Notes under the pieces: generated by a model
Told to the model about the DNA's origin: nothing
Seen by the model: only the letters and a program-made list of their open reading frames with translations
Databases searched by the model: none
DNA from: a virus
UHGV virus genome: UHGV-0350099
DNA: 61,496 nt
Strand: one strand, 5' to 3'
Shown here: positions 5,981-9,680 of the stretch, in pieces
Numbering within the stretch: position 1 is the first letter of the stretch
How the letters are laid out: every line of letters starts with the position of its first letter
Translations under genes and position numbers: made by a program

Positions 5981-6232
5981 ATGCTAGGCAGCCTGATGAC
6001 AAAGCTAAAAGTTGCTTTGATTACGCTGGCTGCCGTTCTTTTCGTTCTTGTCGGCGCTTACACGATGGGCGGGAATGCGGCGCGACGAGCAATGGAAGAG
6101 AAGGCAAAACAGGAAGACAGAAAACGACTTCAAAACACAGTGAAAGTGGTGAATGAGACGAACAGTGAAATACGTCAGAAAGATGCTTCTGCCATTCATC
6201 GTGAGCTGCATGATAAGTGGATGCGTCATTAA
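5981..6232 (+). CDS. i-spanin-like (Rz-like) protein
   Basis: N-terminal TM helix LITLAAVLFVLVGAY followed by charged coiled-coil-like region; next gene overlaps in another frame. Confidence 0.5.
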   Translation: MLGSLMTKLKVALITLAAVLFVLVGAYTMGGNAARRAMEEKAKQEDRKRLQNTVKVVNETNSEIRQKDASAIHRELHDKWMRH

Positions 6233-6368
6233 GCCACAAACCGCTAGCGTGTTGTTCTGCGATGGCGCTGAACCTATTTATATCAGCAATGACGATGTAA
6301 TGACCGAAGAAACCGAACGCCAAATCCTTTTTCACAATACGATGGGAGAGAGAGTTTGCGGTTGGTGA
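6153..6368 (+). CDS. o-spanin-like (Rz1-like) lipoprotein, overlapping the i-spanin gene
   Basis: Signal peptide with lipobox MISGC; starts inside 5981-6232 in a different frame, classic overlapped spanin architecture. Confidence 0.55.
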   Translation: MRRTVKYVRKMLLPFIVSCMISGCVIKPQTASVLFCDGAEPIYISNDDVMTEETERQILFHNTMGERVCGW

Positions 6369-6400
6369 TGTCGAAGTTCCCCTCAAATGAGGGGGACACA

Positions 6401-6922
6401 TTATTCTTCGAACAATTTTTCGATAGATTTTGTTGGATAGAACAAAGAACGATCGTTGTTACCAACCAGCTGGATAAAGCCCAAACTTTTATAAAACGCC
6501 CTGGCTTTATCGTTCAACGCCTCAACGAAAAGCCCATGAATGCCTACCGCAAGAGATGCATTGTACACAACACGCATTGCGTGAGTTACAAGCATTGAGC
6601 CAAGCCCCTGACCTTGAAGAGATTTGTCCAAAGCCAGTCTGCCTAAAGTGATACTTGGGACATTCCGATAAGGCACTTTCTTTTGCTGACTCTTTGAAGG
6701 TAAGGTTTCTTTCTCAAAGCAGCTGCCTGACAAAGTGTAATAACCTAATACCTTTGGTATTTCTTCTTTAGTGCAAAGCACATAAGCGCGAAGAATTTTT
6801 CCTTCATGCTGTCTTTTTAAGTGGTTGGTCAAAAATGCGTTTAGTGACTCTTCGCCGCAATCAAAACCGTTTAGATCATAATCGTTCTCTCCAGAGAAAA
6901 TCTCGATCGTCGTATTGCTCAC
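6401..6922 (-). CDS. GNAT-family acetyltransferase toxin (TacT-like)
   Basis: 173 aa; acetyl-CoA motif LGRLALDKSLQGQGLGSML; immediately downstream of a DUF1778-type small protein on same strand. Confidence 0.7.
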   Translation of the reverse strand: MSNTTIEIFSGENDYDLNGFDCGEESLNAFLTNHLKRQHEGKILRAYVLCTKEEIPKVLGYYTLSGSCFEKETLPSKSQQKKVPYRNVPSITLGRLALDKSLQGQGLGSMLVTHAMRVVYNASLAVGIHGLFVEALNDKARAFYKSLGFIQLVGNNDRSLFYPTKSIEKLFEE

Positions 6923-6929
6923 GAGTAAA

Positions 6930-7199
6930 TTACTCCATGCTTTTCAGACGATTGGCAGCTCGTTTCAGCTTGTCGTTCGGTGCCGGAGGATTGCTTATAG
7001 CATCCATAACCAGATTCCAGGACTCTTCACTTAGAACCAGTCTACGGTGTTGCTCTATCACCTTCACGGCACGTTCGGATGCACTGCTAACCATGAACTG
7101 GGTAATGCTCTGGTTAGACATTGCGGCAGCTTCCTCGATGATGCTTTTATCGTCATCGGTTAATCTCAAATCGATGCGCTGCTTTTTCAGTGCGGACAT
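6930..7199 (-). CDS. RHH/DUF1778-type antitoxin (TacA-like)
   Basis: 89 aa; RIDLRLTDDDKSIIEEAAAMSNQSITQFM pattern typical of DUF1778 antitoxins; 7-nt gap to GNAT gene. Confidence 0.7.
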   Translation of the reverse strand: MSALKKQRIDLRLTDDDKSIIEEAAAMSNQSITQFMVSSASERAVKVIEQHRRLVLSEESWNLVMDAISNPPAPNDKLKRAANRLKSME

Positions 7200-7209
7200 G
7201 TGTACCCCC

Positions 7210-7290
7210 TGATGGCCGGTGATGTAGGAAGGCCATCATTGCTCTCTATTTAAACTGAGTTTTCGACTCAAAGGTTATTTAACTGGGCTA
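7210..7290. promoter_or_regulatory. Inverted repeats upstream of the antitoxin gene (candidate autoregulatory operator)
   Basis: GATGGCC-N13-GGCCATC at 7210-7236 and perfect palindrome TGGGCTATAGCCCA near 7275-7290. Confidence 0.3.
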
Positions 7291-7467
7291 TAGCCCATTG
7301 CGTATGTGTCATCAAATTGTGTACGGCAATTTACCGTACTCGTAATATAGAGATGATTGTCACTTTTTTCAACAGACAAATGAAAACAGTTACTAGCAAT
7401 AGGCAATAACAACCTACTAAATAACCTTTACACCGCAGCCGTAGGCATTTAGGCTATATCACATATA

Positions 7468-7484
7468 AGAAAACAAGTTGTTTC
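7468..7484. promoter_or_regulatory. AAACAAGTTGTTT palindrome upstream of parA
   Basis: AGAAAACAAGTTGTTTC about 35 nt before parA start. Confidence 0.5.
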
Positions 7485-7518
7485 AGACGATAATTATATA
7501 CGCAAAGGGAACTCTCCA

Positions 7519-8187
7519 ATGACCAAGATCTTTGTGGTTGGCGGCACAAAGGGCGGGCCTGGCAAATCCACTGTTGCCCAGCAAATTGCCGTTTGCCTGA
7601 AAGTCAAAAAGAAGAAGAAGGTTTATATCACTGATATAGATATTCAGCGCACGACAACGAGCTGGTGTGAAGACCGTCGACAGAACGAAGACCTTGAGCT
7701 GATTCCTTTTGCATACGTTCAGGATGACATCATTAAGCACCTAAAATCGCTTCAGGGTAGAGCTGAGTATGTAGTGGTAGATGCTGGTGGCTTCGACTCC
7801 GAAATTCAGCGACAAGCGATGCTGATGGCTGACGTTATCATTATCCCGCTGCGTCCTAAGCGTCGTGATTTGAAATCTTTACGTGACATCGATCCTATTA
7901 TCGACAATGTTCGCAATGTAAACGATAAAGTGAAGGTCCGCGCGGTCATGAACCAGTGCCCGGCTTTGCCATCACAAGTGTCTCGCATTCTGGCGGCTAA
8001 AGAGATTGTTGAGACGTTTGGCATCGAGTCTGCGCCAGTCAATCTATATAACCGCAACGTCTATGATGATGCGGAAGAGTCTGGTCGTTCTATCTTTGAA
8101 ATGACCGGTAGCGAGCGCGACAAAAAGGCGGAAGCCGAGTTTGAAGAATTTGTAGATTATCTGTTGAGTCTGGAGGAAGAAGAATAA
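7519..8187 (+). CDS. parA: ParA/Soj-family partition ATPase (small, type Ib-like)
   Basis: Deviant Walker A GGTKGGPGKST at N-terminus; 222 aa without N-terminal HTH. Confidence 0.8.
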   Translation: MTKIFVVGGTKGGPGKSTVAQQIAVCLKVKKKKKVYITDIDIQRTTTSWCEDRRQNEDLELIPFAYVQDDIIKHLKSLQGRAEYVVVDAGGFDSEIQRQAMLMADVIIIPLRPKRRDLKSLRDIDPIIDNVRNVNDKVKVRAVMNQCPALPSQVSRILAAKEIVETFGIESAPVNLYNRNVYDDAEESGRSIFEMTGSERDKKAEAEFEEFVDYLLSLEEEE

Positions 8188-8546
8188 TGTCCATGAAAAT
8201 GGGTGACCTAGCAAAGCGCAAAGAGCCTGATGCACCGGCTAAGAACACAACTCCTTTGCGCCAACCAGTCAGACCACAGGGACGCCCGACTCGTGGCAAA
8301 GAGAAAATTAAAAGCCGCACGATGTCACTGGAAGACGAATACTTCGAACTGCTGGAGATGATGAAGTTCATCCCTCGCTTCGAGAAGTTCACCCGTTCTG
8401 ACGTGATTCGCGCAGCCATTTTCCATCTGGCAGAGAAGTCACCGCAGGAAATCGAGGACATCGTGAAACTTAACGAGGCGATCACTGCTGCCGATGTCAC
8501 GATGCGTACCGATGAAATTAAACGCGAGTTAATGAAGAAAGGTTGA
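8187..8546 (+). CDS. Small partition/centromere-binding protein partner (ParG/RHH-like)
   Basis: 119 aa; start overlaps parA stop (TAATG); basic N-terminus, C-terminal region compatible with ribbon-helix-helix. Confidence 0.45.
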   Translation: MSMKMGDLAKRKEPDAPAKNTTPLRQPVRPQGRPTRGKEKIKSRTMSLEDEYFELLEMMKFIPRFEKFTRSDVIRAAIFHLAEKSPQEIEDIVKLNEAITAADVTMRTDEIKRELMKKG

Positions 8547-8606: not shown

Positions 8607-9680
8607 CTATTCGTAGTTAAGCTCACCGAACAGACTGAACATCAAGTCACCATCCAAAATTTCAAAGGGCAACTCGACATACTCATCCTTATGTCTCGGA
8701 ATTGCGTTGCCGTCGTTAGGGGCATTCTTGGTATAACCTTTTACATGTTTACCGTTTTCTTTTGTATACGGCAGCACGACAATTCGACCGTGATTTTTTG
8801 AAATGATAGTTCCTTCTTTCCAGAGCGTATTGCCTCTTGAGGTGGTTTCGCTTTCGCTAGCAACTTTAACACTCCAACCTACCTGATTTTTGTCCTCAAA
8901 CCAGAAAACAAAGTTGCCAACAACCAGTACCTTTTGCCCATTCCTGAGAGCTTCATCCAGCATTCTTTTTACGCTGGCGAGTTGCAGTAACCGGTTAGCA
9001 CGCGGCAGAAGCATTGAGCGAATAGTCGCTTTTGTTTTTCCCCAATGTGCAGCGCCTGATAAACCAAAACCTCTGGCTATGCGTTCTTGGTAGCAGATCT
9101 TCGCTGTCTTAGCTTTGTTGTTATATGAACATTCCCAAGTGTTAGGAGCAACGAGTTGAAGTGAAACTTGGAATTTGGGAAGAAAAACAAAATGTAAGTA
9201 AGGCATCTCGCTTAGCACGTCAAAAAGGGGTTGACGCAAAGTTTCGTAATCTGGGTTAATTATTAACTCATTTAATGTCACTCGCGGATCGTTGGCGTGT
9301 GCCTTAATTGCTTCGTTGAGCATTATATGCTCTTCATCCATGAGACGTGATTTGGCTTTGAGTGCTTTGTCAACTTTCAAACGCAATGACTTCTTTTGAA
9401 ACATAGATAGAGGAAGTTTTTCAATGTCAAAGCTCACGTTTTTATTCAGCTCTAATGCCGCTTTTCTTGCTTCAGGATAGTTATCGTAGTCGTCATCAAA
9501 AGCGTGGTTTGGCATACCACGATCAACATATCGCCGATACCAAGCAAGGGTTCCATCATTACGGAGTTTCAGACAGAACATCGACCATTTATTCCGTTCA
9601 TATTTAGGCTGAGGCCAAAAAGCCAGTTCGGGAAGGCCATATCCTGGAAGTCTATTCATGCGCATGGTGACAATATCCAC
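8607..9680 (-). CDS. Hypothetical protein in AT-rich accessory segment
   Basis: 357-aa ORF on minus strand; lower GC than flanking replication genes; no motif recognised. Confidence 0.5.
   Translation of the reverse strand: MDIVTMRMNRLPGYGLPELAFWPQPKYERNKWSMFCLKLRNDGTLAWYRRYVDRGMPNHAFDDDYDNYPEARKAALELNKNVSFDIEKLPLSMFQKKSLRLKVDKALKAKSRLMDEEHIMLNEAIKAHANDPRVTLNELIINPDYETLRQPLFDVLSEMPYLHFVFLPKFQVSLQLVAPNTWECSYNNKAKTAKICYQERIARGFGLSGAAHWGKTKATIRSMLLPRANRLLQLASVKRMLDEALRNGQKVLVVGNFVFWFEDKNQVGWSVKVASESETTSRGNTLWKEGTIISKNHGRIVVLPYTKENGKHVKGYTKNAPNDGNAIPRHKDEYVELPFEILDGDLMFSLFGELNYE

Follow-up and report, generated by a model that had tools for sequence, protein, structure and literature searches.

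An AtaRT/KacAT-clade GNAT-RHH toxin-antitoxin module in an accessory cassette of an SSU5-like Escherichia phage-plasmid

The window considered here, the whole 61,496-nt stretch of viral DNA catalogued as UHGV virus genome UHGV-0350099, carries on its minus strand a pair of small genes encoding an RHH (DUF1778) protein and a GNAT protein, together with a set of predicted regulatory features upstream (Table 1). The antitoxin gene comes first on the same strand, and a 7-nt gap (6923-6929) separates its stop codon from the toxin start. The position of the two ORFs, their spacing and their orientation opposite to the surrounding genes agree exactly with what an earlier sequence-only reading of this DNA had claimed. 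The GTG start of the toxin gene has a GGAG 10 nt upstream. To the left of the pair, the plus strand encodes holin, endolysin, Rz and Rz1 and, to the right, ParA and its small partner, the pair being divergently adjacent to parA. The hairpin on the Rz1 side is terminator-like on the plus strand, with a 9-bp stem containing 6 GC pairs and a T-rich tail; the T-tract is absent on the minus strand, and we infer that the TA transcript ends at this hairpin.

Table 1 Features of the toxin-antitoxin locus and its surroundings (coordinates are those of the window).
Feature	Coordinates	Strand	Details
Rz/Rz1 spanins	5981-6232, 6153-6368	plus	
Accessory cassette, extent relative to the SSU5 backbone	about 6369-7412		from alignment with SSU5
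GC-rich hairpin, likely terminator	6376-6397		between convergent Rz1 and toxin stop codons
Toxin gene, GNAT, AtaT/KacT clade	6401-6922	minus	173 aa, GTG start
Antitoxin gene, RHH/DUF1778, AtaR/KacA clade	6930-7199	minus	89 aa, ATG start, preceded by Shine-Dalgarno (SD) GGGGG at 7205-7209
Leader, 121 nt	7200-7320	minus	between operator and antitoxin ATG
Stem-loop TGATGGCC-N13-GGCCATCA	7210-7238	minus	perfect 8-bp inverted repeat, adjoins the GGGGG at 7205-7209
Palindrome	7244-7259		within leader
Palindrome TGGGCTATAGCCCA	7284-7297		within leader
Predicted operator GTACGG-N7-CCGTAC, GTACGGCAATTTACCGTAC	7321-7339		inverted repeat
Predicted sigma-70 promoter	7344-7372	minus	-35 TTGAAA 7372-7367, 17-nt spacer, -10 TATATT 7349-7344
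ParA gene	7519-8187	plus	

Profile searches of both ORFs returned the families that the sequence-only reading had expected. The larger protein matched the GNAT families PF00583 and PF13508 (both at about 1.6e-8) and PF13673, all above the Pfam gathering cut-offs, and the smaller one matched TacA1/DUF1778 (PF08681, E=3.5e-26, cut-off 21 bits). Against PDB sequences, the toxin aligned over its full length with AtaT (6GTS/6AJM, E~1e-78, best 1.5e-78; 266 bits) and with KacT (5ZGN/5XUN, E~1e-76; 257 bits), whereas Salmonella-type TacT structures reached only E=1e-12 to 1e-21 (49-79 bits). The toxin is 69% identical to E. coli O157 AtaT along its full length and without gaps. The acetyl-CoA motif previously noticed in the GNAT protein was located as the loop QGQGLG at residues 102-107, which fits the consensus Q/R-x-x-G-x-G/A and is conserved with AtaT, and the catalytic tyrosine Y144 is kept in the segment ...ARAFYKSLGF..., aligning with AtaT Y144, the equivalent of KacT Y145; a Y145F mutant is the form present in the acetyl-CoA-bound KacT structure (PMC6698736). 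The antitoxin matched KacA (5zgn_A, E=2.5e-41) and AtaR (6ajm_C, E=5e-40) and is 75% identical to E. coli O157 AtaR, also without gaps. [quoted passage not shown]

As measured by the alignments to AtaT (E=1.5e-78) and KacA (E=2.5e-41), the family resemblance is far beyond chance. The identities to AtaT and AtaR, the family E-values and the conserved residues together indicate membership of the AtaRT/KacAT clade and, at the level of sequence, the pair is confirmed as a GNAT-RHH (DUF1778) type II toxin-antitoxin of that clade (clade A of PMC9177977). Of the TacT/TacA-like label originally given to the pair, the GNAT/DUF1778 type II part is thus retained, but the closest kin are AtaRT and KacAT, the match to TacT being much weaker. 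This distinction bears on the expected targets, with TacT-type toxins (clade D) being specific for Gly-tRNA and clade A toxins promiscuous (PMC9177977), and the module is placed in the promiscuous clade of AtaT and KacT and not in the Gly-specific TacT clade.

A consensus scan upstream of the antitoxin gene detected a predicted sigma-70 promoter with 10 of 12 matches, and an inverted repeat starts 4 nt downstream of its predicted -10 box. In its half-sites and its 7-nt spacing, this repeat matches the KacAT operator, crystallised as the 27-bp sequence AAATGTACGGTTATTAACCGTACATGA and reported to span the transcription start (PMC6698736), although the spacer sequence differs; the position of the predicted promoter fits such an arrangement. 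GTACGG-N7-CCGTAC is unique in the 61-kb window, in which 0.02 chance matches would be expected. Of the close relatives examined, nearly all have the palindrome upstream; its half-sites are the same throughout and its spacer sequence varies, which is the pattern expected of a protein-binding site. The exceptions were one locus with an N6 spacer and a Cyrano-type locus (L055) without a match. Most relatives examined also have a TTGAnn-17-TAnnnT layout placed 4-5 nt before the palindrome, and the combination of promoter and palindrome was present at O157 ataR in Escherichia, at an IncF-plasmid homologue and at 63-71% identical relatives from Leclercia, Hafnia, Silvania, Brenneria, Rahnella and others.

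The 7321-7339 repeat, overlapping the transcription start predicted near 7335-7340, is consequently the predicted operator candidate of the module. The sequence-only reading had nominated palindromes at 7210-7290 for this function. Those palindromes do exist, but the role of KacAT/AtaRT operator homologue falls to the intact homologue at 7321-7339: the predicted promoter is upstream of the candidates at 7210-7290, which are specific to their lineage and differ from the KacAT/AtaRT operator. Binding and reporter work would therefore be better directed at 7321-7339 than at the 7210-7290 palindromes.

The leader between operator and antitoxin ATG is presumably transcribed, since it is downstream of the predicted promoter, and shares conserved blocks with the corresponding allele of Escherichia phage Cyrano. 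Its stem-loop beside the SD appears in both the MFE and the centroid folds and, when the phage-plasmid alleles are compared, the loop varies and the stem is the same in all. The distance from operator to ATG divides the relatives into a short class (23-26 nt) and a long class (83-148 nt), and both the copy on the phage-plasmid and that on an IncF plasmid belong to the latter. Of six independent loci with a long leader, four possess a stem of 8-12 bp that ends 10-13 nt before the ATG, beside the SD. The sequences of these stems are unrelated between lineages, and 0 of 2000 shuffles gave more than two loci with such a stem, in a test whose position criterion (stem end 10-13 nt before the ATG) was set post hoc, with the pattern already seen. 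The folding energy of the leader was not significant (Z of -1.46 for the window and -1.36 for the IncF homologue), per-locus hairpin energies compared with shuffles gave mixed results, and an Rfam search of 6200-7600 at E<=1 returned no match, the leader thus corresponding to no catalogued RNA. On these sequence comparisons, the SD-adjacent hairpin stands as an unexplained lead, short of a finding. The long leader with its SD-adjacent stem might exert post-transcriptional control as an element of an undescribed kind, such as a protective hairpin remaining at the 5' end after processing or, alternatively, the module could engage in cross-talk with chromosomal AtaRT, suggestions that we regard as unlikely. 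If true, the leader element would set antitoxin synthesis or mRNA half-life.

The 1.3-kb stretch searched was 99.9% identical to plasmid p1 of E. coli WEM25, an IncFIB, non-mobilizable plasmid of 108 kb, and shared 90% identity with Escherichia phage Cyrano (pLF82), a virion-producing phage-plasmid of the SSU5-like kind (PMC9928086). Judged by these matches, the window is an Escherichia SSU5-like phage-plasmid, which bears out the phage-plasmid location claimed earlier. Aligned with SSU5, the window loses homology at the stop codon of Rz1 (~6368) and regains it at ~7412, upstream of parA, which delimits an accessory cassette of ~1 kb. The slot between Rz1 and parA is variable, with SSU5, PhiR41_1 and pJN2-26 holding unrelated genes and SSU5 lacking the cassette. 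Pfam searches with these other occupants (SSU5_031/032 and the PhiR41_1 and pJN2-26 genes) and with the ParA partner gave no matches.

The cassette was found in 144 PLSDB plasmids (140 from Escherichia, three from Shigella and one from Enterobacter), 131 of which are non-mobilizable, and occurs as two alleles, one at an identity of at least 99% (46 records) and the other at ~91% (96 records). The conserved segment upstream of parA has a wider distribution, being present in 598 plasmids that include 256 from Klebsiella and 43 from Salmonella, but none of the 145 PLSDB records matching the cassette came from these two genera. Among Escherichia and Shigella records with the parA-upstream segment, ~60% carry the cassette. 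In complete E. coli genomes it was detected in 152 of 5426 (2.8%) and was plasmid-borne in all 152. Between the two phage-plasmid alleles, the antitoxin gene has a dN/dS of 0.04 and the toxin gene one of 0.06, values that indicate strong purifying selection on each. Of the same 5426 genomes, 1625 carry chromosomal ataRT and 1727 carry at least one of the two modules, and both modules were found together in 50, against 45.5 expected under independence and uncorrected for phylogeny, a comparison that gives no signal of avoidance or enrichment. Because the operator half-sites are identical in both modules, cross-regulation between the phage-plasmid module and chromosomal ataRT is possible in the hosts that carry both (50/152).

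We consider it highly probable that the pair is a functional AtaRT/KacAT-clade operon, housed in an accessory cassette and favouring maintenance of the phage-plasmid, with toxicity, tRNA targets, repression and addiction projected from its homologues. The sigma-70 promoter would drive a bicistronic mRNA beginning with the 121-nt leader. [quoted passage not shown] The clade A profile expected of it comprises Gly together with Trp, Tyr, Phe and Met. Growth arrest by the toxin and its neutralisation by the antitoxin have been shown for AtaT and KacT (PMC9177977, PMC9431474). The C-terminal part of the antitoxin would wrap around the toxin, covering its acetyl-CoA site and keeping it from dimerising, and a T-A2-A2-T heterohexamer would bind the 7321-7339 palindrome through its RHH domains (R8/D10/R12) and repress its own promoter, probably with conditional cooperativity. 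These steps, from tRNA acetylation through the antitoxin block to repression by the hexamer with conditional cooperativity, are projected from PMC6698736, PMC9177977 and PMC7595197.

Cells losing the low-copy plasmid-prophage would then be killed or growth-arrested, complementing the adjacent ParA-based partition. We favour this role, plasmid-prophage maintenance by post-segregational growth arrest, by analogy with characterised systems and because the module is exclusively plasmid-borne, on an IncFIB phage-plasmid replicon with parA adjacent, abuts the partition operon, is associated with lysogeny expression and has precedents in GmvAT, a GNAT TA that promotes vertical transmission of pINV (PMC6519299), and in phd-doc, which counts among the persistent gene families of P1-like phage-plasmids (PMC7969092). 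There are counterpoints to addiction. Many SSU5-like phage-plasmids persist without the cassette, among them SSU5 itself and, judged by organism counts, the matched Klebsiella and Salmonella records, hence it is not required for maintenance. The presence of chromosomal ataRT in 50 of the 152 carriers would weaken addiction in those hosts if the antitoxins cross-neutralise, and the ~5.5 copies per cell reported for Cyrano (PMC9928086) imply less need for post-segregational killing. Addiction, if demonstrated, would help explain the persistence of such phage-plasmids in E. coli lineages.

The module could instead act mainly in anti-phage abortive infection or superinfection control, in which a competing phage would shut down host and plasmid transcription, the labile antitoxin would decay and the freed toxin would halt translation before that phage finishes its cycle. 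The variable slot of the cassette, whose other occupants are morons of unknown function, and the expression of the Cyrano homologue in lysogens (PMC9928086) are compatible with such a function, and PMC11559606 and PMC12409363 describe tRNA-targeting toxins as recurring in phage defence. However, no PADLOC-DB 2.0 defence model matched either protein at E<=0.01, which means that the pair is uncatalogued as defence, not that it is inactive in defence; the alternative slot occupants and a neighbouring 357-aa ORF were also without PADLOC matches. In the work cited here (PMC6698736, PMC9177977, PMC9431474, PMC6519299), GNAT-RHH modules are linked with arrested growth, tolerance of antibiotics and the maintenance of plasmids and not with phage defence, and a parAB-adjacent site on a mostly non-mobilizable plasmid-prophage suits maintenance equally or better. 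Addiction is thus better supported by context and precedent, and a mainly anti-phage role appears rather improbable.

A lower probability still is given to the module being a selfish passenger or a stress/persistence modulator of no net benefit to the phage-plasmid, kept because its loss is toxic. Such a passenger could well be optional, as the cassette is within the SSU5 supercommunity, and could occur independently of chromosomal ataRT, as observed (50 against 45.5 expected); KacT is moreover reported to induce antibiotic tolerance (PMC9431474). Set against this are the two ~9% diverged alleles in the same slot of 144 plasmids and the strong purifying selection on them, which point to long vertical persistence, a pattern that cannot separate selfish retention from benefit. 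The reading of the larger protein as a RimI-, MshD- or PaiA-like acetyltransferase, with a housekeeping or small-molecule function, beside an unrelated RHH regulator encoded upstream, an outcome that the sequence-only reading had named as its own undoing, is effectively refuted by the profile scores and keeps practically no probability: NCBIfam equivalogs gave weak matches to rimI and other GNATs, all far under the curated cut-offs (the best, rimI, at 28.3 bits against 86.4), whereas AtaT is matched at 69% identity (E=1e-78) and a DUF1778 partner 75% identical to AtaR is present.

The probable maintenance module is in itself ordinary and already known, being catalogued and published in kind. 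RefSeq labels identical proteins as GNAT and DUF1778, with ataT used in one record, and PHROGs already holds both families. The main value of the analysis lies in the correct annotation of the pair, in a family that is structurally and biochemically well characterised. The mildly novel part is the recurrent SD-adjacent hairpin in long-leader members, together with the role of the cassette for the phage-plasmid.

The AtaR-AtaT module of E. coli O157:H7 (PDB 6GTS, 6AJM, 6AJN) agrees with the pair in gene order, in the gap of 6-7 nt and in the lengths of both proteins. GTACGG-N7-CCGTAC likewise follows just after the -10 box, and Y144, QGQGLG and the RHH N-terminus are common to both. The O157 module, however, is chromosomal, located between livJ and panM and never on plasmids, whereas the window copy was found only on plasmids, and its operator-to-ATG leader measures 26 nt, compared with 121 nt and an SD-adjacent hairpin in the window. 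KacA-KacT of Klebsiella pneumoniae (PDB 5ZGN, 5XUN) shares the operator half-sites and R8/D10/R12; KacA has Q and R at positions 70 and 77, where the window antitoxin has N and K, and the operator spacer also differs. In K. pneumoniae HS11286, the strain of PMC9431474, KacAT resides on the chromosome. TacA-TacT of Salmonella and the wider DUF1778-GNAT family have the same Pfam families and architecture but are far more distant; the chemistry, aminoacyl-tRNA acetylation (PMC9177977), is expected to be the same here by homology.

The role proposed here has functional analogues in GmvAT of the Shigella plasmid pINV and phd-doc of P1, TA modules that use post-segregational killing to stabilise low-copy plasmids or plasmid-prophages (PMC6519299, PMC7969092). 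The phd-doc pair is of an unrelated family, with a Fic kinase as toxin, and GmvAT is likened to the present module by function, not by sequence. The counterpart in Cyrano (pLF82; OV696614), CYRAN_26/CYRAN_27, occupies the same Rz1-parA slot in the same orientation and with the same layout of promoter, operator and leader. It represents a distinct allele, ~90% identical in DNA, with amino-acid identities of 94% for the toxin and 98% for the antitoxin, and its annotated antitoxin start is 36 nt further upstream than here. The two genes are annotated as 'KacT acetyltransferase-type toxin' and 'putative antitoxin' and described as lysogeny-expressed morons, with transcription in lysogens 35- and 60-fold over the local background (PMC9928086).

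SSU5-like phage-plasmids vary in what they carry between Rz1 and parA: this accessory slot is occupied by the toxin-antitoxin cassette in the window and in the related phage-plasmid Cyrano, and by different ORFs in SSU5, PhiR41_1 and pJN2-26. No match was obtained for any of these other ORFs in Pfam or PADLOC searches. Beyond the par operon, the position of the 357-aa ORF, likewise without a match in Pfam and PADLOC, is taken in the E. coli plasmid WEM25 p1, Cyrano and PhiR41_1 by shorter genes, some in opposite orientation, which suggests that a second variable slot flanks parAB.

Features of the cassette, its neighbourhood and the comparison loci.
Feature	Locus	Position	Strand	Remark
Rz1-parA slot	window	6369-7412		TA cassette (also in Cyrano)
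Rz1-parA slot	L002	2600-4000		compared with the window slot
Rz1-parA slot	L056	2100-3500		compared with the window slot
Rz1-parA slot	L057	2680-3500		compared with the window slot
Rz1-parA slot	SSU5		+	two ORFs
Rz1-parA slot	PhiR41_1		+	two ORFs
Rz1-parA slot	pJN2-26		-	one 185-aa ORF
Hairpin	window	6376-6397		GC-rich, 9 bp; exactly between convergent Rz1 and toxin stop codons
SD-adjoining stem-loop	window	7210-7238
SD-adjoining stem-loop	L005	~2960-2991
SD-adjoining stem-loop	L007
SD-adjoining stem-loop	L010
119-aa ORF	window	8187-8546	+	overlaps parA stop
357-aa ORF	window	8607-9680	-	just past par operon
IncF-plasmid pair	L005	2871-3805
Chromosomal ataRT operator	L004	1462-1480

A stem-loop of 8-12 bp, ending 10-13 nt before the antitoxin ATG and adjoining the Shine-Dalgarno (SD) sequence, was found in four of the six independent AtaRT/KacAT-clade operons with a long leader. 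The stem sequences are unrelated among these operons, and an Rfam search with 6200-7600 of the window matched no family. In a shuffle control (n=2000), applied after the pattern had been seen, the number of loci with such a stem never exceeded two. The element may serve post-transcriptional control or stabilise the mRNA. One of its carriers, E. coli p4422IncF (L005), represents a third Escherichia lineage of the clade, located on IncF plasmids and with 68% DNA identity to the window; its pair adjoins a RepB replication gene, and its leader is also long (112 nt), with a 12-bp stem beside the SD.

Chromosomal ataRT was also present in 50 of the 152 genomes that bear the phage-plasmid module in the E. 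coli genome collection, as expected from random association (45.5 genomes). The half-sites of its operator, GTACGG-N7-CCGTAC, are identical to those of the module. The two systems might plausibly repress or neutralise each other.

The sole match of the 119-aa ORF was phrog_5111, of unknown function, and its Pfam search returned none. The Cyrano counterpart, CYRAN_29, is annotated as 'RelE/ParE putative toxin'; the position of the ORF, however, makes a ParA partner (centromere-binding protein) more likely than a toxin, and the Cyrano label thus looks unsupported.

The hairpin between Rz1 and the toxin gene has a T-rich tail on the plus strand only, and is probably the terminator of the lysis operon; it may insulate the TA genes against antisense late transcription. 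At the equivalent junction, SSU5 carries a different hairpin.
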